Assembly: GCA_964016885.1 (NCBI GenBank)
Contig: OZ024742.1
Coordinates: 10,850,001 to 10,914,000, forward strand
From: Eledone cirrhosa
Lineage: Eukaryota
Reading direction: 5' to 3'
DNA: 64,000 nucleotides
Within the stretch, counting starts at the first letter, position 1. Each line of letters begins with the position of its first letter. This document shows, piece after piece, positions 6,226 through 64,000 of this stretch. The notes beneath the pieces are model-generated. The model was given only the letters and a program-made list of their open reading frames with translations, did not search any database and had not been told where the DNA came from. Made by a program: the position numbers and the translations under genes.

Positions 6226-9200
6226 AAAAAACTGTGATGAATGAAAATATGACAGGGGGAAGGGGAGAAAAAACAAACTGATGAATGAAAATATGACAGT
6301 GGGAAGGAGAGAAAAAACAAACTGATGAATGAAAATATGACAGGGGGAAGGAGAGAAAAAACAAACTGATGAATGAAAATATGACAGGGGGAAGGAGAGA
6401 AAAAACAAACTGATGAATGAAAATATGACAGGGGGAAGGAGAGAAAAAACAAACTGATGAATGAAAATATAACAGGGGGAAGGAGAGAAAAAACAAACTG
6501 ATGAATGAAAATATGACAGGAGGAAGGAGAGAAAAAACAAACTGATGAATGAAAATATAACAGGGGGAAGGAGAGAAAAAACAAACTGATGAATGAAAAT
6601 ATGACAGGGGGAAGGAGTGAAAAAACAAACTGATGAATGAAAATATGACAGGGGGAAGGAGAGAAAAAACAAACTGATGAATGAAAATATGACAGGGGCA
6701 AGGAGAGAAAAAACAAACTGATGAATGAAAATATGACAGGAGGAAGGAGAGAAAAAACAAACAGATGAATGAAAATATGACAGGGGGAAGGAGAGAAAAA
6801 ACAAACTGATGAATGAAAATATGACAGGGGGAAGGAGAGAAAAAACAAACTGATGAATGAAAATATGACAGGGGGAAGGAGAGAAAAAACAAACTGATGA
6901 ATGAAAATATGACAGGGGGAAGGAGAGAAAAAACAAACTGATGAATGAAAATATGACAGGGGGAAGGAGAGAAAAAACAAACTGATGAATGAAAATATGA
7001 CAGGGGGAAGGAGAGAAAAAACAAACTGATGAATGAAAATATGACAGGAGGAAGGAGAGAAAAAACAAACTGATGAATGAAAATATGACAGGGGGAAGGA
7101 GAGAAAAAACAAACTGATGAATGAAAATATGACAGGAGGAAGGAGAGAAAAAACAAACTGATGAATGAAAATATGGCAGGGGGAAGGAGAGAAAAAACAA
7201 ACTGATGAATGAAAATATGACAGGAGGAAGGGGAGAAAAAACAAACTGATGAATGAAAATATGACAAGGGGAAGGAGAGAAAAAACAAACTGATGAATGA
7301 AAATATGACAGGAGGAAGGAAAGAAAAAACAAACTGATGAATGAAAATATGACAGGGGGAAGGAGAGAAAAAACAAACTGATGAATGAAAATATGACAGG
7401 AGGAAGGAGAGAAAAAACAAACTGATGAATGAAAATATGACAGGGGGAAGGAGAGAAAAAACAAACTGATGAATGAAAATATGACAGGAGGAAGGAGAGA
7501 AAAAACAAACTGATGAATGAAAATATGACAGGGGGAAGGAGAGAAAAAACAAACTGATGAATGAAAATATGACAGGGGGAAGGAGAGAAAAAACAAACTG
7601 ATGAATGAAAATATGACAGGGGGAAGGAGAGAAAAAACAAACTGATGAATGAAAATATGACAGGGGGAAGGAGAGAAAAAACAAACTGATGAATGAAAAT
7701 ATGACAGGGGGAAGGGGAGAAAAAACAAACTGATGAATGAAAATATGACAGGGGAAGGAGAGAAAAAACAAACTGATGAATGAAAATATGATAGGGGAAG
7801 GAGAGAAAAAACAAACTGATGAATGAAAATATGACAGGGGAAGGAGAGAAAAAACAAACTGATGAATGAAAATATGACAGGGGGAAGGGGAGAAAAAACA
7901 AACTGATGAATGAAAATATGACAGGGGGAAGGAGAGAAAAAACAAACTGATGAATGAAAATATGACAGGGGGAAGGGGAGAAAAAACAAACTGATGAATG
8001 AAAATATGACAGGGGGAAGGGGAGAAAAAACAAACTGATGAATGAAAATATGACAGGGGGAAGGGGAGAAAAAACAAACTGATGAATGAAAATATGACAG
8101 GGGAAGGAGAGAAAAAACAAACTGATGAATGAAAATATGACAGGGGGAAGGGGAGAAAAAACAAACTGATGAATGAAAATATGACAGGGGGAAGGAGAGA
8201 AAAAACAAACTGATGAATGAAAATATGACAGGGGGAAGGAGAGAAAAAACAAACTGATGAATGAAAATATGACAGGGGGAAGGAGAGAAAAAACAAACTG
8301 ATGAATGACAATATGACAGGGGGAAGGGGAGAAAAAACAAACTGATGAATGAAAATATGACAGGGGGAAGGGGAGAAAAAACAAACTGATGAATGAAAAT
8401 ATGACAGGGGGAAGGGGAGAAAAAACAAACTGATGAATGAAAATATGACAGGGAGAAGGAGAGAAAAAACAAACTGATGAATGAAAATATGACAGGGCGA
8501 AGGGGAGAAAAAACAAACTGATGAATGAAAATATGGCAGGGGGAAGGGGAGAAAAAACAAACTGATGAATGAAAATATGACAGGGGGAAGGAGAGAAAAA
8601 ACAAACTGATGAATGAAAATATGACAGGAGGAAGGAGAGAAAAAACAAACTGATTAATGAAAATATGACAGGGGGAAGGGGAGAAAAAACAAACTGATGA
8701 ATGAAAATATGACAGGGGGAAGGGGAGAAAAAACAAACTGATGAATGACAATATGACAGGGGGAAGGGGAGAAAAAACAAACTGATGAATGAAAATATGA
8801 CAGGGGGAAGGAGAGAAAAAACAAACTGATGAATGAAAATATGACAGGAGGAAGGAGAGAAAAACAAACTGATGAATGAAAATATGACAGGGGGAAGGGG
8901 AGAAAAAACAAACTGATGAATGAAAATATGACAGGGGGAATGGGAGATAAAACAAACTGATGAATGAAAATATGACAGGGGGAAGGGGAGAAAAAACAAA
9001 CTGATGAATGAAAATATGACAGGGGGAAGGGGAGAAAAAACAAACTGATGAATGAAAATATGACAGGAGGAAGGAGAGAAAAAACAAACTGATGAATGAA
9101 AATATGACAGGAGGAAGGAGAGAAAAAACAAACTGATGAATGAAAATATGACAGGGGGAAGGGGAGAAAAAACAAACTGATGAATGAAAATATGACAGGG

Positions 9201-10998
9201 GGAAGGGGAGAAAAAACAAACTGATGAATGAAAATATGACAGGAGGAAGGAGAGAAAAAACAAACTGATGAATGAAAATATGACAGGAGGAAGGAGAGAA
9301 AAAACAAACTGATGAATGAAAATATGACAGGAGGAAGGAGAGAAAAAACAAACTGATGAATGAAAATATGACAGGGGGAAGGAGAGAAAAAACAAACTGA
9401 TGAATGAAAATATGACAGGAGGAAGGAGAGAAAAAACAAACTGATGAATGAAAATATGACAGGAGGAAGGAGAGAAAAAACAAACTGATGAATGAAAATA
9501 TGACAGGGGGAAGGGGAGAAAAAACAAACTGATGAATGAAAATATGACGGGGAAGGGGAGAAAAAACAAACTGATGAATGAAAATATGACAGGAGGAAGG
9601 AGAGAAAAAACAAACTGATGAATGAAAATATGACAGGGGGAAGGAGAGAAAAAACAAACTGATGAATGAAAATATGACAGGAGGAAGGAGAGAAAAAACA
9701 AACTGATGAATGAAAATATGACAGGAGGAAGGAGAGAAAAAACAAACTGATGAATGAAAATATGACAGGAGGAAGGAGAGAAAAAACAAACTGATGAATG
9801 AAAATATGACAGGAGGAAGGAGAGAAAAAACAAACTGATGAATGAAAATATGACAGGAGGAAGGAGAGAAAAAACAAACTGATGAATGAAAATATGACAG
9901 GAAGAAGGAGTGAAAAAACAAACTGATGAATGAAAATATGACAGGGGGAAGGGGAGAAAAAACAAACTGATGAATGAAAATATGACAGGAGGAAGGAGAG
10001 AAAAAACAAACTGATGAATGAAAATATGACAGGAGGAAGGAGAGAAAAAACAAACTGATGAATGAAAATATGACAGGAGGAAGGAGAGAAAAAACAAACT
10101 GATGAATGAAAATATGACAGGAGGAAGGAGAGAAAAAACAAACTGATGAATGAAAATATGACAGGAGGAAGGAGAGAAAAAACAAACTGATGAATGAAAA
10201 TATGACAGGAGGAAGGAGAGAAAAAACAAACTGATGAATGAAAATATGACAGGGGGAAGGGGAGAAAAAACAAACTGATGAATGAAAATATGACAGGGGG
10301 AAGGGGAGAAAAAACAAACTGATGAATGAAAATATGACAGGAGGAAGGAGAGAAAAAACAAACTGATGAATGAAAATATGACAGGAGGAAGGAGAGAAAA
10401 AACAAACTGATGAATGAAAATATGACAGGGGGAAGGGGAGAAAAAACAAACTGATGAATGAAAATATGACAGGGGGAAGGGGAGAAAAAACAAACTGATG
10501 AATGAAAATATGACAGGAGGAAGGAGAGAAAAACAAACTGATGAATGAAAATATGACAGGAGGAAGGAGAGAAAAAACAAACTGATGAATGAAAATATGA
10601 CAGGAGGAAGGAGAGAAAAAACAAACTGATGAATGAAAATATGACAGGGGGAAGGGGAGAAAAAACAAACTGATGAATGAAAATATGACAGGGGGAAGGG
10701 GAGAAAAAACAAACTGATGAATGAAAATATGACAGGAGGAAGGAGAGAAAAAACAAACTGATGAATGAAAATATGACAGGAGGAAGGAGAGAAAAACAAA
10801 CTGATGAATGAAAATATGACAGGGGGAAGGGGAGAAAAAACAAACTGATGAATGAAAATATGACAGGGGGAAGGGGAGAAAAAACAAACTGATGAATGAA
10901 AATATGACAGGGGGAAGGAGAGAAAAAACAAACTGATGAATGAAAATATGACAGGGGGAAGGAGAGAGAGAAACGACTGTGATGAATGAAAATATGAG
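6226..10998. repeat. 44-bp minisatellite, about 108 copies
   Basis: Unit gatgaatgaaaatatgacagggggaaggagagaaaaaacaaact, with a few 43-bp variants. Confidence 0.98.
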
Positions 10999-11189
10999 AG
11001 GGGGTGGGGGTATATTTTGTAATAGAGGTGGGAAAGAAGAGAAACTCCTGAGAGAGACAAGAGTATAAAAGTCAATATTGGTTTGTTTTCTCTCCTGCTT
11101 TTATGGTATGTCATAGTTTTAATAATAATACATTAATCATAATTTTGGGGAATATTGGAGAAGAAATATTGTTAGTCCCTTGTTGACAC

Positions 11190-14245: not shown

Positions 14246-15828
14246 ATGAAATTATTGTGTACAGTGCTCAGGTGCACTACAACTCATCAAAGGTGCATGT
14301 ATAGTACACAGGATAATGTACAAATGTCAGGAAAATGAACAGTGTATGAGTCATGAAATACATGTGTGCATGTGTATGGAGTGGGGACATCAGTTGTAGT
14401 GTTAGCGAATCTCAGGAAGCATGGATGTTTTAAAGGATGCAGTATCTCAACAGCTAACAACTGATGCTGGTAGTTTGTTCCATGGATGTTTTAAAGGATG
14501 CAGTGTCTCAACAGCTAACAACTGATGCAGGTAGTTTGTTCCATGGAGGTTTTAAAGGATGCAGTGTCTCGACAGCTAACAACTGATGCAGGCAGTTTGT
14601 TCCATGGAGGTTTTAAAGGATGCAGTGTCTCGACAGCTAACAACTGATGCTAGTAGTTTGTTCCATGGTGGTTTTAAAGGATGCAGTGTCTCGACAGCTA
14701 ACAACTGATGCTGGTAGTTTGTTCCATGGTGGTTTTAAAGGATGCAGTGTCTCGACAGCTAACAACTGATGCAGGCAGTTTGTTCATGGAGGTTTTAAAG
14801 GATGCAGTGTCTCGACAGCTAACAACTGATGCTGGTAGTTTGTTCCATGGTGGTTTTAAAAGATGCAGTGTCTCGACAGCTAACAACTGATGCTGGTAGT
14901 TTGTTCCATGGTGGTTTTAAAAGATGCAGTGTCTCAACAGCTAACAACTGATGCTGGTAGTTTGTTCCATGGATGTTTTAAAGGATGCAGTGTCTCAACA
15001 GCTAACAACTGATGCAGGTAGTTTGTTCCATGGAGGTTTTAAAGGATGCAGTATCTCGACAACTAACAACTGATGCAGGCAGTTTGTTCCATGGAGGTTT
15101 TAAAGGATGCAGTGTCTCGACAGCTAACAACTGATGCCGGTAGTTGGTTCCATGGAGGTTTTAAAGGATGCAGTGTCTCGACAGCTAACAACTGATGCAG
15201 GTTGTTTGTTCCATGGAGGTTTTAAAGGATGCAGTGCCTGACAGCTAACAACTGATGCCGGTAGTTGGTTCCATGGAGGTTTTAAAGGATGCAGTGTCTC
15301 GACAGCTAACAACTGATGCAGGTTGTTTGTTCCATGGAGGTTTTAAAGGATGCAGTGTCTTGACTGCTAACAACTGATACAGGTAGTTTGTTCCATGGAG
15401 GTTTTAAAGGATGCAGTGTCTCGACAGCTAACAACTGATGCTGGTAGTTTGTTCCATGGAGGTTTTAAAGGATGCAGTGTCTCGACAGCTAACAACTGAT
15501 GCTGGTAGTTTGTTCCATGGAGGTTTTAATAGATGCAGTGTCTCGACAGCTAACAACTGATGCCGGTAGTTTGTTTCATGGAGGTTTTAAAGGATGCAGT
15601 GTCTCGACAGCTAAGAACTGATGCCGGTTGTTTGTTCCATGGAGGTTTTAAAGGATGCAGTGTTTCGACAGCTAACAACTGATGCCGGTAGTTTGTTCCA
15701 TGGAGGTTTTAAAGGATGCAGTGTCTCGACAGCTAAGAACTGATGCCGGTTGTTTGTTCCATGTTTCAGCAACTCTGAGTGTGAAAAAATGTTTCCGAAA
15801 GTCGTGGGAGCTGTGCTGTTTTATAATA
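14246..15828 (-). mobile_element. CR1/L2-type LINE 3' fragment containing an internal tandem array
   Basis: Both flanks of the 61-bp array are colinear with the single-unit copy at 1-312. Confidence 0.8.
14420..15763. repeat. 61-bp minisatellite, about 22 copies
   Basis: Unit catggaggttttaaaggatgcagtgtctcgacagctaacaactgatgcaggtagtttgttc. Confidence 0.97.
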
Positions 15829-28300: not shown

Positions 28301-28939
28301 TATATATATATATATATATATAAACATGTTGGCAAATATATGTTAACATATACACCCTTAACAAACATACACATACACACATACAAAAACAAACACACAT
28401 ATTTTCATAGAAAACTGGCTGGGACAACAGATATTAAATAGAGACGATGATGATGCTTCAATACAAACTTTATTTTATGCTATAAACATACATACACATC
28501 ATCATCATCATCATCATCATCATCAGGTTTAGCGTCCGTGTTCCACACTTGCATGGGTTTGGACGGGGGTTTTCCCACTTGAGGCAAGAGTGGTTGTCTT
28601 GCTCGCATAGGACTGTCTGGCGGGTTTTCTACAGTTGGATGCCTTTCCTAACACCAACCACATTTACAGTGTGGGGCTGGGAGGTTTTTACGTGTTGCCT
28701 ACACATATATAAACATATCTATATCTATCTATCTATCTATATCTATCATATATATATATATATTAAACATATCTATATCTATCTATCTATATCTATCATA
28801 TATATATATATTAAACATATCTATATATATACATAAACATATTTATATATATATATATATACGTAATCTTGTATATATACATAAATTTGTTGGCAATTAT
28901 TTAAAAGATAAACTCCTAACACACAGATACACTCACATA

Positions 28940-31900
28940 CACACACACAGATATGTAGTCACATACCCACACATATAGATATACAGTCACATACCCACAC
29001 ATATAGATATACAGTCACATACCCACACACATAGATATACAGTCACATACCCACACACATAGATATACAGTCACATACCCACACACAGATATACAGTCAC
29101 ATACCCACACACATATATACAGTCACATACCCACACATATAGATATACAGTCACATACCCACACATATAGATATACAGTCACATACCCACACATATAGAT
29201 ATACAGTCACATACCCACACACACAGATATACAGTCACATACCCACACACAGATATACAGTCACATACCCACACACATATATACAGTCACATACCCACAC
29301 ACAGATATACAGTCACATACCCACATATAGATATACAGTCACATACCCACACACATATATACAGTCACATACCCACACACATAGATATACAGTCACATAC
29401 CCACACACAGATATACAGTCACATACCCACACACACAGATATACAGTCACATACCCACACACAGATATACAGTCACATACCCACACATAGATATATAGTC
29501 ACATACCCACACACACAGATATACAGTCACATACCCACACACAGATATACAGTCACATACCCACACATAGATATATAGTCACATACCCACACACACAGAT
29601 ATACAGTCACATACCCACACACACAGATATACAGTCACATACCCAGACATAGATATATAGTCACATACCCACACACACAGATATACAGTCACATACCCAC
29701 ACACAGATATACAGTCACATACCCACACATATAGATATACAGTCACATACCCACACATAGATATACAGTCACATACCCACACACATATATACAGTCACAT
29801 ACCCACACACATAGATATACAGTCACATACCCACACACATAGATATACAGTCACATACCCACACACACAGATATACAGTCACATACCCACACACAGATAT
29901 ACAGTCACATACCCACATATAGATATACAGTCACATACGCACACACACATATATATAGTCACATACCCACACACACAGATATACAGTCACATACCCACAC
30001 ACACAGATATACAGTCACATACCCACACACTTAGATATACAGTCACATACCCACACACACAGATATACAGTCACATACCCACACACACAGATATACAGTC
30101 ACATACCCACACACATAGATATACAGTCACATACCCACACACACAGATATACAGTCACATACCCACACACAGATATACAGTCACATACCCACACACATAG
30201 ATATACAGTCACATACCCACACACAGATATACAGTCACATACCCACACACATAGATATACAGTCACATACCCACACACACAGATATACAGTCACATACCC
30301 ACACACTTAGATATACAGTCACATACCCACACACACAGATATACAGTCACATACCCACACACACAGATATACAGTCACATACCCACACACACAGATATAC
30401 AGTCACATACCCACACACATAGATATACAGTCACATACCCACACACACAGATATACAGTCACATACCCACACACAGATATACAGTCACATACCCACACAC
30501 ACAGATATACGGTCACATACCCACACACAGATATACAGTCACATACCCACACACATAGATATACAGTCACATACCCACACACACAGATATACGGTCACAT
30601 ACCCACACACAGATATACAGTCACATACCCACACACATAGATATACAGTCACATACCCACACACACAGATATACGGTCACATACCCACACACACAGATAT
30701 ACAGTCACATACCCACACATAGATATACAGTCACATACCCACACACACAGATATACAGTCACATACCCTCACACACAGATATACAGTCACATACCCACAC
30801 ACATAGATATACAGTCACATACCCACACACACAGATATACAGTCACATACCCACATATAGATATACAGTCACATACGCACACACACATATATATAGTCAC
30901 ATACCCACACACACAGATATACAGTCACATACCCACACACATAGATATACAGTCACATACCCACACACATATATACAGTCACATACCCACACATATAGAT
31001 ATACAGTCACATACCCACACACATAGATATACAGTCACATACCCACACACATATATACAGTCACATACCCACACACACAGATATACAGTCACATACCCAC
31101 ACACATAGATATACAGTCACATACCCACACACATAGATATACAGTCACATACCCACACACATATATACAGTCACATACCCACACACAGATATACAGTCAC
31201 ATACCCACACACACAGATATACAGTCACATACCCACACACATAGATATACAGTCACATACCCACACACACAGATATACAGTCACATACCCACACACATAG
31301 ATATACAGTCACATACCCACACACACAGATATACAGTCACATACCCACACACATAGATATACAGTCACATACCCACACACACAGATATACGGTCACATAC
31401 CCACACACACAGATATACAGTCACATACCCACACACAGATATACAGTCACATACCCACACACATAGATATACAGTCACATACCCACACACACAGATATAC
31501 GGTCACATACCCACACACAGATATACAGTCACATACCCACACACATAGATATACAGTCACATACCCACACACACAGATATACGGTCACATACCCACACAC
31601 AGATATACGGTCACATACCCACACACACAGATATACAGTCACATACCCACACACATAGATATACAGTCACATACCCACACACACAGATATACAGTCACAT
31701 ACCCACACACAGATATACAGTCACATACCCACACACACAGATATACAGTCACATACCCACACACACATATATACAGTCACATACCCACACACACAGATAT
31801 ACAGTCACATACCCACACACACAGATATACAGTCACATACCCACACATATAGATATACAGTCACATACCCACACACACAGATATACAGTCACATACCCAC

Positions 31901-34552
31901 ACACAGATATACAGTCACATACCCACACACATAGATATACAGTCACATACCCACACACACAGATATACAGTCACATACCCACACACACAGATATACAGTC
32001 ACATACCCACACATATAGATATACAGTCACATACCCACACACACAGATATACAGTCACATACCCACACACAGATATACAGTCACATACCCACACACACAG
32101 ATATACAGTCACATACCCACACACACAGATATACAGTCACATACCCACATATAGATATACGGTCACATACCCACACACACAGATATACAGTCACATACCC
32201 ACACACACAGATATACAGTCACATACCCACACACATATATATACAGTCACATACCCACATATAGATATACGGTCACATACCCACACACACAGATATACAG
32301 TCACATACCCACACACATAGATATACAGTCACATACCCACATATAGATATACAGTCACATACCCACACACACAGATATACAGTCACATACCCACATATAG
32401 ATATACGGTCACATACCCACACACACAGATATACAGTCACATACCCACACATATAGATATACAGTCACATACCCACACACAGATATACAGTCACATACCC
32501 ACACATAGATATATAGTCACATACCCACACACACAGATATACAGTCACATACCCACACACACAGATATACAGTCACATACCCACACACACAGATATACAG
32601 TCACATACCCACACACAGATATCCGGTCACATACCCACACACATAGATATACAGTCACATACCCACACACACAGATATACAGTCACATACCCACACACAC
32701 AGATATACAGTCACATACCCACACACACAGATATACAGTCACATACCCACACACAGATATACAGTCACATACCCACACACATAGATATACAGTCACATAC
32801 CCACACACACAGATATACAGTCACATACCCACACACAGATATACAGTCACATACCCACACACATAGATATACAGTCACATACCCACACATATAGATATAC
32901 AGTCACATACCCACACACAGATATACAGTCACATACCCACACACACAGATATACAGTCACATACCCACACACACAGATATACAGTCACATACCCACACAC
33001 AGATATACAGTCACATACCCACACACATAGATATACAGTCACATACCCACACACACAGATATACAGTCACATACCCACACACACAGATATACAGTCACAT
33101 ACCCACACACACAGATATACAGTCACATACCCACACACACAGATATACAGTCACATACCCACACACACAGATATACAGTCACATACCCACACACACAGAT
33201 ATACAGTCACATACCCACACACACAGATATACAGTCACATACCCACACACACAGATATACAGTCACATACCCACACACACAGATATACAGTCACATACCC
33301 ACACACACAGATATACAGTCACATACCCACACACACAGATATACAGTCACATACCCACACACACAGATATACAGTCACATACCCACACACATAGATATAC
33401 AGTCACATACCCACACACAGATATACAGTCACATACCCACACACATAGATATACAGTCACATACCCACACACACAGATATACAGTCACATACCCACACAC
33501 AGATATACAGTCACATACCCACACACACAGATATACAGTCACATACCCACACACATATATACAGTCACATACCCACACACAGATATACAGTCACATACCC
33601 ACACACACAGATATACAGTCACATACCCACACACACAGATATACAGTCACATACCCACACACACAGATATACAGTCACATACCCACACACATAGATATAC
33701 AGTCACATACCCACACACATAGATATACAGTCACATACCCACACACACAGATATACAGTCACATACCCACACACATAGATATACAGTCACATACCCACAC
33801 ACACAGATATACAGTCACATAGCCACACACACAGATATACAGTCACATACCCACACACAGATATACAGTCACATACCCACACACACAGATATACGGTCAC
33901 ATACCCACACACACAGATATACAGTCACATACCCACACACACAGATATACAGTCACATACCCACACACACAGATATACAGTCACATACCCACACACACAG
34001 ATATACAGTCACATACCCACACACACAGATATACAGTCACATACCCACACATAGATATACAGTCACATACCCACACACAGATATACAGTCACATACCCAC
34101 ACACACAGATATACAGTCACATACCCACACACACAGATATACAGTCACATACCCACACACACAGATATACAGTCACATACCCACACACAGATATACAGTC
34201 ACATACCCACACACATAGATATACAGTCACATACCCACACACACAGATATACAGTCACATACCCACACACATATACAGTCACATACCCACACACACAGAT
34301 ATACAGTCACATACCCACACACACAGATATACAGTCACATACCCACACACATAGATATACAGTCACATACCCACACACATAGATATACAGTCACATACCC
34401 ACACACACAGATATACAGTCACATACCCACACACACAGATATACAGTCACATACCCACACACATAGATATACAGTCACATACCCACACACATAGATATAC
34501 AGTCACATACCCACACACACAGATATACAGTCACATACCCACACACATAGAT
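28940..34552. repeat. 26/28-bp minisatellite, about 200 copies
   Basis: Unit agatatacagtcacataccc(ac)3-4. Confidence 0.98.
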
Positions 34553-36491: not shown

Positions 36492-38697
36492 TTCCCTCTT
36501 GCACATATTCCCTTGACACTGTCCCCAACCAATTCTATTGTAGGTCCCTCTTGCACAGATCCCCTTGACTGTCACCAACCAATTCTATTGTAGGTCCCTC
36601 TTGCACAGATCCCCTTGACTGTCACCAACCAATTCTATTGTAGGTCCCTCTTGCACAGATCCCCTTGACTGTCCCCAACCAATTCTATTGTAGGTCCCTC
36701 TTGCACAGATCCCCTTGACTGTCCCCAACCAATTCTATTGTAGGTCCCTCTTGCACAGATCCCCTTGACTGTCACCAACCAATTCTATTGTAGGTCCCTC
36801 TTGCACAGATCCCCTTGACTGTCCCCAACCAATTCTATTGTAGGTCCCTCTTGCACAGATTCCCTTGACTGTCCCCAACCAATTCTATTGTAGGTCCCTC
36901 TTGCATAGATCCCCTTGACTGTCCCCAACCAATTCTATTGTAGGTCCCTCTTGCACAGATCCCCTTGACTGTCCCCAACCATTTCTATTGTAGGTCCCTC
37001 TTGCACAGATTCCCTTGACTGTCCCCAACCAATTCTATTGTAGGTCCCTCTTGCACAGATCCCCTTGACTGTCCCCAACCAATTCTATTGTAGGTCCCTC
37101 TTGCACAGATCCCCTTGACTGTCACCAACCAATTCTATTGTAGGTCCCTCTTGCACAGATCCCCTTGACTGTCCCCAACCAATTCTATTGTAGGTCCCTC
37201 TTGCACAGATCCCCTTGACTGTCCCCAACCAATTCTATTGTAGATCCCTCTTGCACAGATCCCCTTGACTGTCCCCAACCAATTCTATTGTAGGTCCCTC
37301 TTGCACAGATTCCCTTGACACTGTCACCATCCAATTTTATTGTAGGTCCCTCTTGCACAGATTCCCTTGACTGTCCCCAACCATTTCTATTGTAGGTCCC
37401 TCTTGCACAGATCCCCTTGACTGTCCCCAACCAATTCTATTGTAGGTCCCTCTTGCACAGATCCCCTTGACTGTCACCAACCAATTCTATTGTAGGTCCC
37501 TCTTGCACAGATCCCCTTGACTGTCCCCAACCAATTCTATTGTAGGTCCCTCTTGCACAGATCCCCTTGACTGTCCCCAACCATTTCTATTGTAGGTCCC
37601 TCTTGCACAGATTCCCTTGACTGTCCCCAACCATTTCTATTGTAGGTCCCTCTTGCACAGATCCCCTTGACTGTCCCCAACCAATTCTATTGTAGATCCC
37701 TCTTGCACAGATCCCCTTGACTGTCCCCAACCAATTCTAGTGTAGGTCCCTCTTGCACAGATTCCCTTGACACTGTCACCATCCAATTTTATTGTAGGTC
37801 CCTCTTGTACAGATTCCCTTGACTGTCCCCAACCAATTCTATTGTAGATCCCTCTTGCACAGATTCCCTTGACTGTCCCCAACCAATTCTATTGTAGATC
37901 CCTCTTGCACAGATCCCCTTGACTGTCCCCAACCAATTCTAGTGTAGGTCCCTCTTGCACAGATTCCCTTGACACTGTCACCATCCAATTTTATTGTAGG
38001 TCCCTCTTGTACAGATTCCCTTGACTGTCCCCAACCAATTCTATTGTAGATCCCTCTTGCACAGATCCCCTTGACTGTCCCCAACCAATTCTAGTGTAGG
38101 TCCCTCTTGCACAGATTCCCTTGACTGTCCCCAACCAATTCTATTGTAGATCCCTCTTGCACAGATTCCCTTGACTGTCCCCAACCAATTCTATTGTAGA
38201 TCCCTCTTGCACAGATTCCCTTGACTGTCCCCAACCAATTCTATTGTAGATCCCTCTTGCACAGATTCCCTTGACTGTCCCCAACCAATTCTATTGTAGA
38301 TCCCTCTTGCACAGATTCCCTTGACTGTCCCCAACCAATTCTATTGTAGATCCCCCTTGCACAGATTCCCTTGACTGTCATCATCCAATTCTATTGTAGA
38401 TCCCTCTTGCACAGATTCCTTTGACTGTCCCCAACCAATTCTATTGTAGATCCCTCTTGCACAGATTCCCTTGACTGTCCCCAACCAATTCTATTGTAGA
38501 TCCCTCTTGCACAGATTCCCTTGACTGTCCCCAACCAATTCTATTGTAGATCCCCCTTGCACAGATTCCCTTGACTGTCATCATCCAATTCTATTGTAGA
38601 TCCCTCTTGCACAGATTCCTTTGACTGTCCCCAACCAATTCTATTGTAGATCCCTCTTGCACAGATTCCCTTGACTGTCATCATCCAATTCTACTGT
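36492..38697. repeat. 50-bp minisatellite, about 44 copies
   Basis: Unit tccctcttgcacagatYcccttgactgtccccaaccaattctattgtagR. Confidence 0.98.
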
Positions 38698-43148: not shown

Positions 43149-43342
43149 GGGCGGTGGATTGGCAGTATCGGTAGAGAGTTGGACACCATGCTTTACAGCA
43201 TAGAGTTACGGCCCTTTATGATCGGAGTTCAAATCCCGCCGAAGTCAACTTTGCCTTTCATCCTTACGAGGTCGATAAAATAAAGTACCAGTAATGCACT
43301 GGGATAATTGCTGGCCTTGTGCCAAAAGTAGAAACAATTATT
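43149..43342 (+). mobile_element. tRNA-headed SINE (family B), full length
   Basis: Head ggcggtggattggcagtatcggtagag, B box gagttcaaatccc, core gcctttcatcc...gtcgataaaataaagtaccag. Flanking direct repeat attattaaaatataat. Confidence 0.82.
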
Positions 43343-46806: not shown

Positions 46807-46953
46807 GTAAATGTTTGTTTTTAATTCATACATACTTTATTGCAGCTTCCCCACCACTACCACCACATCAACAGCATCATCATCATCATCAATCAGACTA
46901 ATTAACTGTTTTTGCAGAACACACGATTCTTCATTACTATGATCATCATCATA

Positions 46954-47140
46954 GGGCAGTGGATTGGCAGTATCGGTAGAGAGTCAGACGCCATGCTTTG
47001 CAGCATAGAGTTACGACCCTTGCCATTCTGAGTTCAAATCCTGCTGAGGTTAACTTTGCCTTTCATCCTTACGTACCATAAAGTACCTGTAATATACTGG
47101 GATAATTGCTGGCCTTGTGCCAAGAGTAGAAACAATTATT
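46954..47140 (+). mobile_element. tRNA-headed SINE (family B)
   Basis: Homologous to 43149-43342. Confidence 0.8.
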
Positions 47141-47903: not shown

Positions 47904-48667
47904 TGTTTCTACTTTTGGCACAAGGTGAGCAATTATCCAGTATATTACTGGTACTTTATCGACCCTGTAAGGATGAAAGGTAAGATTAACCTCGGCGGGA
48001 TTTGAACAAAGAATGGCAAGGGACGTAACTGTGCATCAAAGCATGACATCCGACCCTCTACCGATACTGCCAATCCACTGCCCTCGCATGGTGTCAGACC
48101 CTCTACCGATACTGCCAATCCACTGCCCTAGCATGGCCTCAGACCCTCTACCGATACTGCCAATCCACCGCCCTAGCATGGCGTCAGACCCTCTACCGAT
48201 ACTGCCAATCCACTGCCCTAGCATGGCGTCAGACCCTCTACCGATACTGCCAATCCACTGCCCTAGCATGGCGTCAGACCCTCTACCGATACTGCCAATC
48301 CACTGCCCTAGCATGGCGTCAGACCCTCTACCGATACTGCCAATCCACTGCCCTAGCATGGCGTCAGACCCTCTACCGATACTGCCAATCCACTGCCCTA
48401 GCATGGCGTCCGACCCTCTACCGATACTGCCTATCCACCGCCCTAGCATGGCGTCAGACCCTCTACCAATACTGCCAATCCACTGCCCTAGCATAGCGTC
48501 AGACCCTCTACCAATACTGCCAATCCACTGCCCTAGCATGGCGTCCGACCCTCTACCGATACTTCCAATCCACTACCCTAGCATGGCATCAGACTCTCTA
48601 CCGATACTGCCAATCCACCACCCTAGCATGGCGTCAGACTCTCTACCGATACTGCCAATCCACCGCC
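47904..48667 (-). mobile_element. Family B SINE with tandemly amplified 5' head
   Basis: TSD attggctatataat at 47890-47903 and 48668-48681. SINE body occupies about 47904-48040. Confidence 0.85.
48040..48667. repeat. 45-bp minisatellite, about 14 copies
   Basis: Unit cactgccctagcatggcgtcagaccctctaccgatactgccaatc. Confidence 0.96.
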
Positions 48668-50817: not shown

Positions 50818-50958
50818 TATTAAAATAACAGATTAAAGTTTAAGCAAAGAATCACTGCTTTCACCCTTAACGGGATCTTCTGAAACTGAGTTTCAGAAGA
50901 TCCCGTTAAGGGTGAAAGCAGTGATTCTTTGCTTAAACTTTAATCTGTTATTTTAATA
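50818..50958. repeat. Perfect palindrome, 70-bp arms, 1-nt spacer
   Basis: Centre ...cttctgaaact-g-agtttcagaag... at 50888; abuts (TA)n. Confidence 0.95.
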
Positions 50959-51491
50959 AATATTTGCTCTACGGTTTTATATATATTATATATATATTAT
51001 CCTTATCGAGCCCTCTTCAGATTTTAGTCTTCACATTATTACTATATATATATACATACACATAAATATGGATTCAGAGGGATGAGGCTGTAAGTTACTG
51101 ATGACGAGTGTTAGAAAGTAAAGGTACACAAGAAATGGACATCTTCCCTTCATCAGTTATGTATATATATATATATATATATACAAGGATCGGAATTAGA
51201 GTATTCCGCAGTTCACAGTAATAATAATATTAGCTCAAAGAAGAACATAATTGCTAACCTGTAGGTGTTGTTTTCCATACAGTAACGGTTAAACCCACAT
51301 GTAATAATTCTTTACACACATCTCGCTGTGTAACACACTTCTCTCTGTGTAATATATTTGTATATATATATATAGGAAAAGAGTCAGGACCCTGACGGCT
51401 GAGCTCTTGCCGTTTCGACAGCTAGATCTGAATATATATATAGTTGAAAGACAAGAGAAAAATATACTCAATACTGTAGTTCAGTTTAATT

Positions 51492-59076: not shown

Positions 59077-59839
59077 CAAAAGCGGAACTAGATCCAGTTC
59101 TCTACAGGAAGACTGTAAATAATAAAATACATAATTTTACCATTTTGACTTTAGTTTCGTTATTTCATTATTGTACTTCAATATTGGGTTGTTGTGTGTT
59201 GTGTGATGTTATTGTGTGTTGTGTGATGTATATTGTGTGTTGTGTGATGTATATTGGGTTGTTGTGTGATGTACTTCAATGCTGTATGTTATTGTATGTT
59301 GTTATTGTGTGATGTACTTCAATCTTATTGTATGTTGTACTTCAATATTGTATGTTGTGTTGTACTGCAATATTATGTTTTTGTATGCTATTCTGTGATG
59401 TACTTCAATATTGTGTATTGTTGTACTTCAATATTTTATATTATTATTGTCATTCACCAGAAGAGAAACATGAGAGTGGTGAGAGAAGTGCAGCCTTCTA
59501 ACCAGTTTGTTGAAAGGTAGGTGAGAGAGGGAATCATGATCTGAGTGAATGGGCTTACCTTGAGTATGTACCTTTATATTGGAGGAGGACAACAGAGAGG
59601 GCACTTACCTTAGCAGTCAAGGTTATTGTGGCCTTTCTCCCTAAGTAACCCTGGGAGGTATGACCCTTTTGGGGAATTTGTTGTGTTTTGATATTTTAAA
59701 TGTATATTTTTTTTTTAGTCTTTGTTATAAATCTTTCTTACACACACACAAAACAACAAAACTGTACCGTCCTGTACCACCTTGTTGTTTTAATGTGAGC
59801 CCTGTCTGGCTTATAAAGAAACCATTCTTATTATTATTG

Positions 59840-62800
59840 AGACAGCAGTGCTACAGAGGAGTACTATCAGGTTGTAACAGGTTCTATTGCTATGACAGTG
59901 CTATAGAGGTGTACTATCAGGTTGTAACAAGTTCTATTGGTATGACAGTGCTACAGAGGAGTACTATCAGGTTGTAACAGTTTCTATTGGTATGACAGTG
60001 CTACAGAGGAGTACTATCAGGTTGTAACAAGTTCTATTGGTATGACAGTGCTACAGAGGAGTACTATCAGGTTGTAACAGTTTCTATTGGTATGACAGTG
60101 CTACAGAGGAGTACTATCAGGTTGTAACAGGTTCTATTGGTATGACAGTGCTACAGAGGAGTACTATCAGGTTGTAACAAGTTCTATTGGTATGACAGTG
60201 CTACAGAGGAGTACTATCAGGTTGTAACAGTTTCTATTGGTATGACAGTGCTACAGAGGAGTACTATCAGGTTGTAACAGGTTCTATTGGTATGACAGTG
60301 CTACAGAGGAGTACTATCAGGTTGTAACAAGTTCTATTGGTATGACAGTGCTACAGAGGAGTACTATCAGGTTGTAACAGTTTCTATTGGTATGACAGTG
60401 CTACAGAGGAGTACTATCAGGTTGTAACAAGATCTATTGGTATGACAGTGCTACAGAGGAGTACTATCAGGTTGTAACAGGTTCTATTGGTATGACAGTG
60501 CTACAGAGGAGTACTATCAGGTTGTAACAAGTTCTATTGGTATGACAGTGCTACAGAGGAGTACTATCAGGTTGTAACAGGTTCTATTGGTATGACAGTG
60601 CTACAGAGGAGTACTATCAGGTTGTAACAAGTTCTATTGGTATGACAGTGCTACAGAGGAGTACTATCAGGTTGTAACAAGTTCTATTGGTATGACAGTG
60701 CTACAGAGGAGTACTATCAGGTTGTAACAATTTCTATTGGTATGACAGTGCTACAGAGGAGTACTATCAGGTTGTAACAGGTTCTATTGGTATGACAGTG
60801 CTACAGAGGAGTACTATCAGGTTGTAACAGGTTCTATTGGTATGACAGTGCTACAGAGGAGTACTATCAGGTTGTAACAAGTTCTATTGGTATGACAGTT
60901 CTACAGAGGAGTACTATCAGGTTGTAACAGTTTCTATTGGTATGACAGTGCTACAGAGGAGTACTATCAGGTTGTAACAGGTTCTATTGATATGACAGTG
61001 CTACAGAGGAGTACTATCAGGTTGTAACAGTTTCTATTGGTATGACAGTGCTACAGAGGAGTACTATCAGGTTGTAACAATTTCTATTGGTATGACAGTG
61101 CTACAGAGGAGTACTATCAGGTTGTAACAGTTTCTATTGGTATGACAGTGCTACAGAGGAGTACTATCAGGTTGTAACAGGTTCTATTGGTATGACAGTT
61201 CTACAGAGGAGTACTATCAGGTTGTAACAATTTCTATTGGTATGACAGTGCTACAGAGGAGTACTATCAGGTTGTAACAAGTTCTATTGGTATGACAGTG
61301 CTACAGAGGAGTACTATCAGGTTGTAACAATTTCTATTGGTATGACAGTGCTACAGAGGAGTACTATCAGGTTGTAACAGTTTCTATTGGTATGACAGTG
61401 CTACAGAGGAGTACTATCAGGTTGTAACAATTTCTATTGGTATGACAGTGCTACAGAGGAGTACTATCAGGTTGTAACAGTTTCTATTGGTATGACAGTG
61501 CTACAGAGGAGTACTATCAGGTTGTAACAGTTTCTATTAGTATGACAGTGCTACAGAGGAGTACTATCAGGTTGTAACAGGTTCTATTGGTATGACAGTG
61601 CTACAGAGGAGTACTATCAGGTTGTAACAGGTTCTATTGGTATGACAGTGCTACAGAGGAGTACTATCAGGTTGTAACAATTTCTATTGGTATGACAGTG
61701 CTACAGAGGAGTACTATCAGGTTGTAACAGTTTCTATTGGTATGACAGTGCTACAGAGGAGTACTATCAGGTTGTAACAATTTCTATTGGTATGACAGTG
61801 CTACAGAGGAGTACTATCAGGTTGTAACAGTTTCTATTGGTATGACAGTGCTACAGAGGAGTACTATCAGGTTGTAACAATTTCTATTAGTATGACAGTG
61901 CTACAGAGGAGTACTATCAGGTTGTAACAGGTTCTATTGGTATGACAGTGCTACAGAGGAGTACTATCAGGTTGTAACAGGTTCTATTGGTATGACAGTG
62001 CTACAGAGGAGTACTATCTGGTTGTAACAGTTTCTATTGGTATGACAGTGCTACAGAGGAGTACTATCAGGTTGTAACAATTTCTATTAGTATGACAGTG
62101 CTACAGAGGAGTACTATCAGGTTGTAACAGGTTCTATTGGTATGACAGTGCTACAGAGGAGTACTATCAGGTTGTAACAGGTTCTATTGGTATGACAGTG
62201 CTACAGAGGAGTACTATCAGGTTGTAACAAATTCTATTGGTATGACAGTGCTACAGAGGAGTACTATCAGGTTGTAACAGGTTCTATTGGTATGACAGTG
62301 CTACAGAGGAGTACTATCAGGTTGTAACAGTTTCTATTGGTATGACAGTGCTACAGAGGAGTACTATCAGGTTGTAACAGTTTCTATTGGTATGACAGTG
62401 CTACAGAGGAGTACTATCAGGTTGTAAAAGTTTCTATTGGTATGACAGTGCTACAAAGGAGTACTATCAGGTTGTAACAGGTTCTATTGGTATGACAGTG
62501 CTACAGAGGAGTACTATCAGGTTGTAACAAGTTCTATTGGTATGACAGTGCTACAGAGGAGTACTATCAGGTTGTAACAGGTTCTATTGGTATGACGGTG
62601 CTACAGAGGAGTACTATCAGGTTGTAACATGTTCTATTGGTATGACAGTGCTACAGAGGAGTACTATCAGGTTGTAACAAGTTCTATTGGTATGACAGTG
62701 ATACAGAGGAGTACTATCAGGTTGTAACAGGTTCTATTGGTATGACAGTTCTACAGAGGAGTACTATCAGGTTGTAACAAGTTCTATTGGTATGACAGTG

Positions 62801-64000
62801 CTACAGAGGAGTACTATCAGGTTGTAACAGATTCTATTAGTACTCCTCTGTAGCACTGTCATACCATCAGGTTGTAACAAGTTCTATTGGTATGACAGTG
62901 CTACAGAGGAGTACTATCAGGTTGTAACAGGTTCTATTAGTACTCCTCTGTAGGACTGTCATACCAATAGAACCTGTTACAACCTGATAGTACTCCTCTG
63001 TAGCACTGTCATACCAATAGAACTTGTTACAACCTGATGGTATGACAGTGCTACAGAGGAGTACTAATAGAATCTGTTACAAACTGATAGTACTCCTCTG
63101 TAGCACTGTCATACCAATAGAACTTGTTACAACCTGATAGTACTCCTCTGTAGAACTGTCATACTAATAGAATCTGTTACAACCTGATAGTACTCCTCTG
63201 TATCACTGTCATACCAATAGAACTTGTTACAACCTGATAGTACTCCTCTGTAGCACTGTCATACCAATAGAACATGTTACAACCTGATAGTACTCCTCTG
63301 TAGCACCGTCATACCAATAGAACCTGTTACAACCTGATAGTACTCCTCTGTAGCACTGTCATACCAATAGAACTTGTTACAACCTGATAGTACTCCTCTG
63401 TAGGACTGTCATACCATCAGGTTGTAACAAGTTCTATTGGTATGACAGTGCTACAGAGGAGTACTATCAGGTTGTAACAGGTTCTATTTGTATGACAGTG
63501 CTACAGAGGAGTACTATCAGGTTGTAACAAGTTCTATTGGTATGACAGTGCTACAGAGGAGTACTATCAGGTTGTAACAGGTTCTATTGTTATGACAGTG
63601 CTACAGAGGAGTACTATCAGGTTGTAACAAGTTCTATTGGTATGACAGGGCTACAGAGGAGTACTATCAGGTTGTAACATGTCCTATTGGTATGACAGTG
63701 CAACGGAGGAGTACTATCAGGTTGTAACAAGTTCTATTGGTATGACAGTGCTACAGAGGAGTACTATCAGGTTGTAACAAGTTCTATTGGTATGACAGTG
63801 CTACAGAGGAGTACTATCAGGTTGTAACAGGTTCTATTGGTATGACAGTGCTACAGAGGAGTACTATCAGGTTGTAACAAGTTCTATTGATATGACAGTG
63901 CTACAGAGGAGTACTATCAGGTTGTAACAAGTTCTATTGGTATGACAGTGCTACAGAGGAGTACTATCGGGTTGTAACAGGTTCTATTGGTATGACAGTG
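59840..64000. repeat. 50-bp satellite, more than 80 copies, runs off the window; contains internal inversions
   Basis: Unit gtactatcaggttgtaacaRNttctattggtatgacagtgctacagagga. Inverted segments at 62838-62866 and 62938-63416. Confidence 0.98.

Follow-up and report, generated by a model that had tools for sequence, protein, structure and literature searches.

We found that a 50-bp satellite array at the right end of a 64,000-nucleotide stretch of the Eledone cirrhosa genome (contig OZ024742.1, positions 10,850,001 to 10,914,000 of the forward strand, assembly GCA_964016885.1; hereafter the window) contains a block of flipped units that forms a long palindrome with the nine units to its left. 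The block is an example of a known mutation class, inverted tandem duplication. With moderate confidence, and judging from the sequence, we favor an origin in which nine units (450 bp) were duplicated in inverted orientation in one event with two polymerase strand switches, the return switch having been guided by a micro-inverted unit that was already present in the array. The features that appear to support this origin are rare variants and a micro-inversion that are mirrored between the two copies, a spacer of the size that a fold-back predicts, a G variant that is found only in the flanking units, seamless junctions, and breakpoints at common edges of one part of the repeat unit, the A box. 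Coordinates of all features are collected in Table 1.

The array continues beyond the window, and for this part window-continued coordinates are used, i.e., the numbering was carried past 64000 into the next 70 kb of the same contig (C3, 379 Mb). Within the window, Tandem Repeats Finder (TRF) reported a period of 50 at 59846-64000 with 83.1 copies and 91% matches; the G+C content of the array is 39.6%. The unit is best split into two parts, a 29-nt A box (TGGTATGACAGTGCTACAGAGGAGTACTA) and, after it, a 21-nt B box (TCAGGTTGTAACAGGTTCTAT). Their reverse complements are denoted a and b, and all four pieces were mapped across the entire array by Hamming distance with an optimal non-overlapping choice. 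TGGTA at the start of the A box and TACTA at its end constitute an inverted micro-repeat of 5 nt that is complementary at 4 of 5 positions, or at 5 of 5 with a G-T pair. A preliminary description of the window had proposed that other arrays of this family be examined for the same breakpoints, and they were sought genome-wide by exact words. The 29-nt core word matched the 3.0-Gb genome (1796 contigs) 675 times in forward and 9 times in reverse orientation, 684/684 of these matches were inside this array, and every exact match of the junction words J1 and J2 was also located there and none elsewhere. The satellite family is single-locus at exact-word stringency, at which diverged relatives would escape.

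The preliminary description had presented 62967-63387 as the reverse complement of 62517-62937, with a micro-inversion mirrored in it, identical 29-mers on both sides, an unbroken 50-bp register and a hairpin-capable palindrome of about 870 bp. All of this was confirmed with small refinements. The two segments differ by 3 mismatches in 421 nt (62731/63173, 62739/63165 and 62821/63083), and the micro-inverted A box and its mirror image are exact reverse complements. The full arms, 62488-62937 and 62967-63416, comprise 450 nt each with 4 mismatches (99.1% alike), the fourth being the G variant at 62500/63404, which both 29-mers carry and which the left arm is without. An inverted-repeat search reported the pair with arms of 455 nt, 99% complementary and 19 nt apart, and the next 24 pairs listed were 94-97%; the top forward match of the left arm elsewhere in the array was 94.9%. 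A and B pieces adjoin without gaps across the region, zero bases were added at either junction of the block, and the spacer between the arms is 19-29 nt. To the right of the block, 63417-63866 does not represent a third copy, as its top match (97.8% at 60417) is a generic array match. The palindrome is 871 bp long by the limits first given and 929 bp with full arms. As single-stranded DNA, the 929-nt stretch was predicted to fold into one hairpin with -553.9 kcal/mol (z = -91.6, 20 shuffles). The one structural point that had to be revised was the view of the 29-mers as separate brackets, since they are instead the end A boxes of a flipped block a(ba)x9.

Variants in the arms were scored against the 50-column consensus of 123 neighboring units. 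Thirteen sites were non-consensus in at least one arm; 9 of the 13, including five rare ones, were common to both arms at mirror positions. Four of these variants had been described as private. All four are indeed mirrored and three are rare, but 62750T is not private: it represents a common unit type, with its 13-mer present 194 times in the array. In flipped orientation, the G variant occurs only in the two flanking units (62938-62966 and 63388-63416), and its forward form was found in 7 of ~1133 units, the nearest of which is ~3.7 kb away. The micro-inversion at 62838-62866 is older than the duplication. Mismatches 63165 and 63173 form one 13-mer that was found 3 times in the array, at 62830 (the micro-inversion junction), 63062 (its mirror) and 63162. 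The last site belongs to a 21-nt patch which holds two of the three arm mismatches and likely represents a short conversion after the duplication, from 100 bp away, and does not resemble random error. The mismatches had also been taken as a sign of real age. They are present, but two of the three would derive from a single patch event, and the argument is further weakened because conversion between the arms could hide age.

Table 1. Positions of the satellite array, the flipped blocks, the mirrored variants and other tandem arrays in the window.
Feature	Position	Strand	Size or frequency	Remarks
50-bp satellite array	59838..116477 window-continued (G000:C3:10909838-10966477)	+	56,640 bp, ~1133 units	Window has left part, 59838..64000
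Left (source) arm	62488..62937	+		Nine forward units, one with micro-inverted A box
Micro-inverted A box, left arm (flipped block a)	62838..62866	-	29 bp	Exact reverse complement of A consensus; mirrored at 63038-63066
Flipped block a(ba)x9	62938-63416		479 bp	One inner forward A at 63038-63066
Flipped A box with G variant, palindrome centre	62938..62966	-		19 nt unpaired
Inverted copy of 62517-62937	62967..63387	-	421 nt	3 mismatches
Forward A box within flipped block	63038..63066	+		Mirror image of micro-inversion
Patch within right arm	63162..63182	-	21 nt	Identical to 63062-63082, 100 bp upstream
Second flipped A box with G variant, right edge of flipped block	63388..63416	-		Identical to 62938-62966
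Flipped block a-b-a	84947-85025 window-continued		79 bp	
Flipped block a-b-a	93087-93165 window-continued		79 bp	
Flipped block a-b-a	100653-100731 window-continued		79 bp	
Mirrored rare variant 62597G	62597		0.8% of 123 units	Mirror 63307
Mirrored rare variant 62630T	62630		1.6% of 123 units	Mirror 63274
Mirrored rare variant 62701A	62701		0.8% of 123 units	Mirror 63203
Mirrored rare variant 62831A	62831		2.4% of 123 units	
Mirrored variant 62750T	62750		8.9% of 123 units	Mirror 63154
Other tandem array	6235-11004		44 bp x 108.6	TRF
Other tandem array	14420-15763		61 bp x 22.1	TRF
Other tandem array	28919-34552		28 bp x 205.4	TRF
Other tandem array	36493-38697		50 bp x 43.9	TRF

The favored origin would involve the following steps. 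Before the event, the array would have read ...B a(G) B..., where a(G) is the micro-inverted unit with the G variant at 62938, and, in an identical dimer context, a second micro-inverted unit would have been present 100 bp further left. Synthesis would have passed through a(G) and then turned back at the weakly self-complementary unit ends (TAGTA...TACCA, 4/5), after which the opposite strand would have been copied for ~421-437 nt. Once synthesis reached the next A box, the new end would have found a match in the original template, namely the initial 16 nt of a(G), re-annealed there, copied a(G) a second time and continued. In four-point notation this corresponds to the order 3-2-4-1, and the whole change would be explained if B a(G) B was ancestral. 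The same product may come from break-repair synthesis instead of a replication fork. Such an origin would account for the inverted copy adjoining its source, for the two identical flipped A boxes with a rare variant at its ends and for edges of the same kind as in the small flips. Homology for the return switch amounts to up to 16 nt, or to the entire 29-nt unit, and the only nearby homology for the backward-copied strand on the original template is a(G) and the unit at 62838. When the 450 bp are excised, a regular dimer pattern is obtained, in which 62838-62937 and 63388-63487 differ only at the G; the two micro-inverted units that then lie 100 bp apart are expected from a simple dimer duplication of one micro-inversion.

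It had been proposed that a micro-inverted unit supplied homology for both switches. This idea is retained for the switch back, where it is consistent with the shared G and the homology of up to 16 nt, but not for the switch out. If the latter had been guided by pairing between a and A, a B box would contain the symmetry axis, and 62867-62887 would be the source of the first flipped B, whereas its observed source is 62917-62937. The axis lies inside the micro-inverted unit, which offers only the 5-nt self-complementarity of its ends, with one mismatch.

Several points weigh against the favored origin. The order of events was deduced from a single assembled haplotype. The central switch has only 1 nt of certain microhomology, or 4/5 nt if TAGTA/TACCA is counted, and the model requires that the second micro-inverted unit was there beforehand. 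The shared G could be a later product of conversion between the arms. In addition, inversion in place at A-box edges does occur in this array, as judged from the 79-bp a-b-a blocks, and this keeps a two-step origin alive. On the other hand, one event that comprised both switches is a better fit than two independent ones; a separate inversion would have to coincide with the second tandem copy at both edges.

The a-b-a blocks were analyzed together with the other flipped segments of the array. All five flipped blocks found across 56.6 kb open and close with a flipped A box, i.e., all breakpoints are A-box edges. A marker B box (TCAGATTGTAAGAGTTTCTGT) is present in 10 copies at multi-kb spacing and defines paralogous stretches; it is followed by forward units in 7 of the 10 copies and by a-b-a in the other 3/10. 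Three of the seven forward-type paralogs have the exact left context of the flipped copies and read A(G)-B(AAG)-A(G), and the A box after each a-b-a is of the T type, which differs from the flipped ones. Because unflipped paralogs with A(G)-B(AAG)-A(G) occupy the same place, the a-b-a blocks look like a single in-place A-B-A inversion that was later spread by multi-kb duplication, and not like fold-back copies. Beyond 64000 and up to 116477 (~50 kb), the array is composed of repeated multi-kb segments, in which the marker B box and small indel marks (27, 19, 11 and 3 nt) come back at intervals of roughly 3.1, 5.8, 6.5, 7.6 and 8.1 kb. A more uniform 50/100-bp pattern characterizes the proximal 6 kb.

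These common edges bear on the first of the alternatives, an overshooting micro-inversion that started from an un-inverted unit in one step. Here, the polymerase would exit at the end of B9, land at the far end of the opposite-strand forward A box (C variant), copy back this box and nine units, and return at an A/B edge. We consider this path unlikely, even though its edges are those of the 29-bp and 79-bp flips, no second pre-existing micro-inversion is called for, and the register and arms come out the same. It predicts that the last flipped A box is a copy of 62488-62516 without the variant. The G observed there would have to be acquired later by conversion from the central box, and an extra event at exactly that unit is thus required.

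Alternatively, two events may have been involved: a direct 450-bp tandem duplication ending in a C-variant A box, followed by an in-place inversion of 479 bp that spanned both such A boxes. This scenario reproduces every base and feature, including both G variants, and each of its steps has a counterpart in the array, where multi-kb tandem duplications are abundant (for example, the 10 copies of the marker B box) and the a-b-a blocks look like examples of in-place inversion at A-box edges. It is nevertheless quite improbable, as a spacer of 19-29 nt would remain only if both inversion edges coincided with those of the second copy. The cost of this coincidence is about two orders of magnitude, a figure estimated from ~18 possible edges per side and not computed.

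An assembly or library artefact, such as a polishing error or a long read that is chimeric or folded back, was also considered. The assembly has only one haplotype of the locus. Eight public runs were found, and the best of them, X3-X5 (one sample), contain only 0.22-0.24 of 46 sampled words. Sequences from the runs were compared with 62400-63500 (X3, X4, X5 and X1) and with 62810-63450 (X3, X4, X6 and X7); the Logan pieces listed are 40-84 nt long, with 162 and 115 further pieces not among them. None of the listed pieces bridges 62837/62838, 62937/62938, 63066/63067 or 63416/63417, and bins over three of the four junctions read 0, although such holes are no evidence in either direction. The unique sequence to the left and to the right of the array is matched by loose contig ends from X3, X4 and X5, which indicates that this sample has the same locus. 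Unlike a fold-back read, the block ends after 479 bp, where forward units resume in phase with the 100-bp dimers. The arms differ by the structured 21-nt patch, which counts against an in-vitro fold-back, and by one substitution, and both flanks have a rare variant that the left arm is without. Besides, the block lies 3.1 kb within a 56.6-kb array on a 379-Mb contig. This internal evidence favors a real structure, and an artefact, one of polishing included, appears improbable. Finally, a retrotransposon-linked local inversion, by twin priming or an ORF2p-type nick, can hardly be credited, since both junctions are pure satellite in register, foreign sequence, poly(A) and target duplication are all absent, and the block was duplicated and not merely flipped.

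The runs X6 and X7 represent restriction site-associated DNA sequencing (RAD-seq) of two other individuals. Each has 8 partly fitting raw reads, in which only ~40 nt (63080-63119) match and are followed by unrelated sequence; this loose end is the same in 6 and 3 reads, respectively. These individuals may carry a fragment of the unit at another locus.

Several known systems resemble the block in part. Short-range template-switch events usually involve tens of bases. The palindromic AT-rich repeats (PATRRs) of human chromosomes 11 and 22 are near-perfect palindromes of several hundred bp that can form cruciforms. The block is likewise near-perfect with a short spacer, but it has 40% G+C, as does the array, and is therefore not of the AT-rich PATRR type; rearrangements are not linked to this palindrome. 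A duplication-inverted triplication-duplication (DUP-TRP/INV-DUP) was rejected because a third copy is absent: only two copies have the private variants, and the best other forward match of the arm is 94.9%. Large fold-back inverted duplications and breakage-fusion-bridge (BFB) palindromes end in terminal deletions or dicentric chromosomes. The block shares with them a short spacer between inverted arms (PMC3907307), but it is not such a palindrome, as forward orientation returns at 63417 and the array runs 53 kb further.

It has been reported that inverted tandem duplication is a recurring class in human DNA, with 6/166 rearrangements (Frith and Khan 2018, PMC5829575). As in that class, the block here consists of only two copies, the second of which is inverted and adjoins its source, and there is no triplication. 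Unlike the events described there, it lies within a satellite, is bounded by sub-boxes of the unit and is flanked by a 29-nt direct repeat (PMC5829575). Similarly, template switches in great apes with point 4 ahead of point 1 were described as resembling one large insertion (Walker, Loytynoja and Goldman 2021, PMC7954356). The block agrees with these four-point events in that the segment is the reverse complement of adjacent sequence (3/421 or 4/450 mismatches, with rare variants mirrored), forms a hairpin-capable inverted repeat and, on the favored path, would have point 4 before point 1. It differs in that the 2->3 fragment is ~421-437 nt and lies in a tandem array, and in that the return may use an older micro-inversion (PMC7954356). 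In yeast, templated inverted insertions produced by fold-back at DNA breaks are mostly ~5-34 bp (PMC11724301). They are also inverted copies of sequence beside the break that are primed by fold-back at microhomology, whereas the copy here is 450 bp and a break is only hypothetical (PMC11724301). In our literature searches, no description was found of a micro-inverted repeat unit that guides the return switch; this is a weak negative.

Nested events can be read from this locus with unusual clarity: first a micro-inversion, probably next a dimer duplication, later the inverted duplication of nine units and finally a short patch of conversion. The locus could be used to illustrate how tandem arrays come to contain long palindromes and changes of orientation, and it offers a specific, testable idea, namely that a small inversion supplies homology for the return switch. 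A broader version of this idea is that the A-box edges (TGGTA...TACTA) form a hot spot at which polymerases switch strands, that a micro-inverted unit is the only way home for the backward-copied strand, and that micro-inversions therewith seed long satellite palindromes and orientation switches. We regard this generalization as tentative and rather doubtful. If the hot spot is true, it would provide a general route to strand switches in complete assemblies of centromeres and satellites. Only the recurrent A-box-edge breakpoints and the notion of a return ticket might be of interest to specialists. With regard to the palindrome itself, no function of the block is evident. The 929-bp palindrome is predicted to stall replication or to extrude as a cruciform, and transcription of the array, if any, would be expected to yield double-stranded RNA of ~450 bp.

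The rest of the window (1-59800) has a very high tandem-repeat density, with 150 TRF rows. At least 130 amino acids are encoded by each of 25 open reading frames listed for the window, the majority of which are within TRF tandem-repeat stretches, and an Rfam scan of the 64-kb window gave 0 matches. None of the window's other tandem arrays showed internal flips in a search for inverted 22-mers within 5 kb. Isolated inverted copies of a 45-bp unit were observed at 43151-43177 and 46952-46985, 1-5 kb upstream of the array of this unit at 48040-48667. In addition, 50818-50959 contains inverted arms of ~70 nt with practically zero spacer in unique-looking sequence, which may be a small hairpin element.

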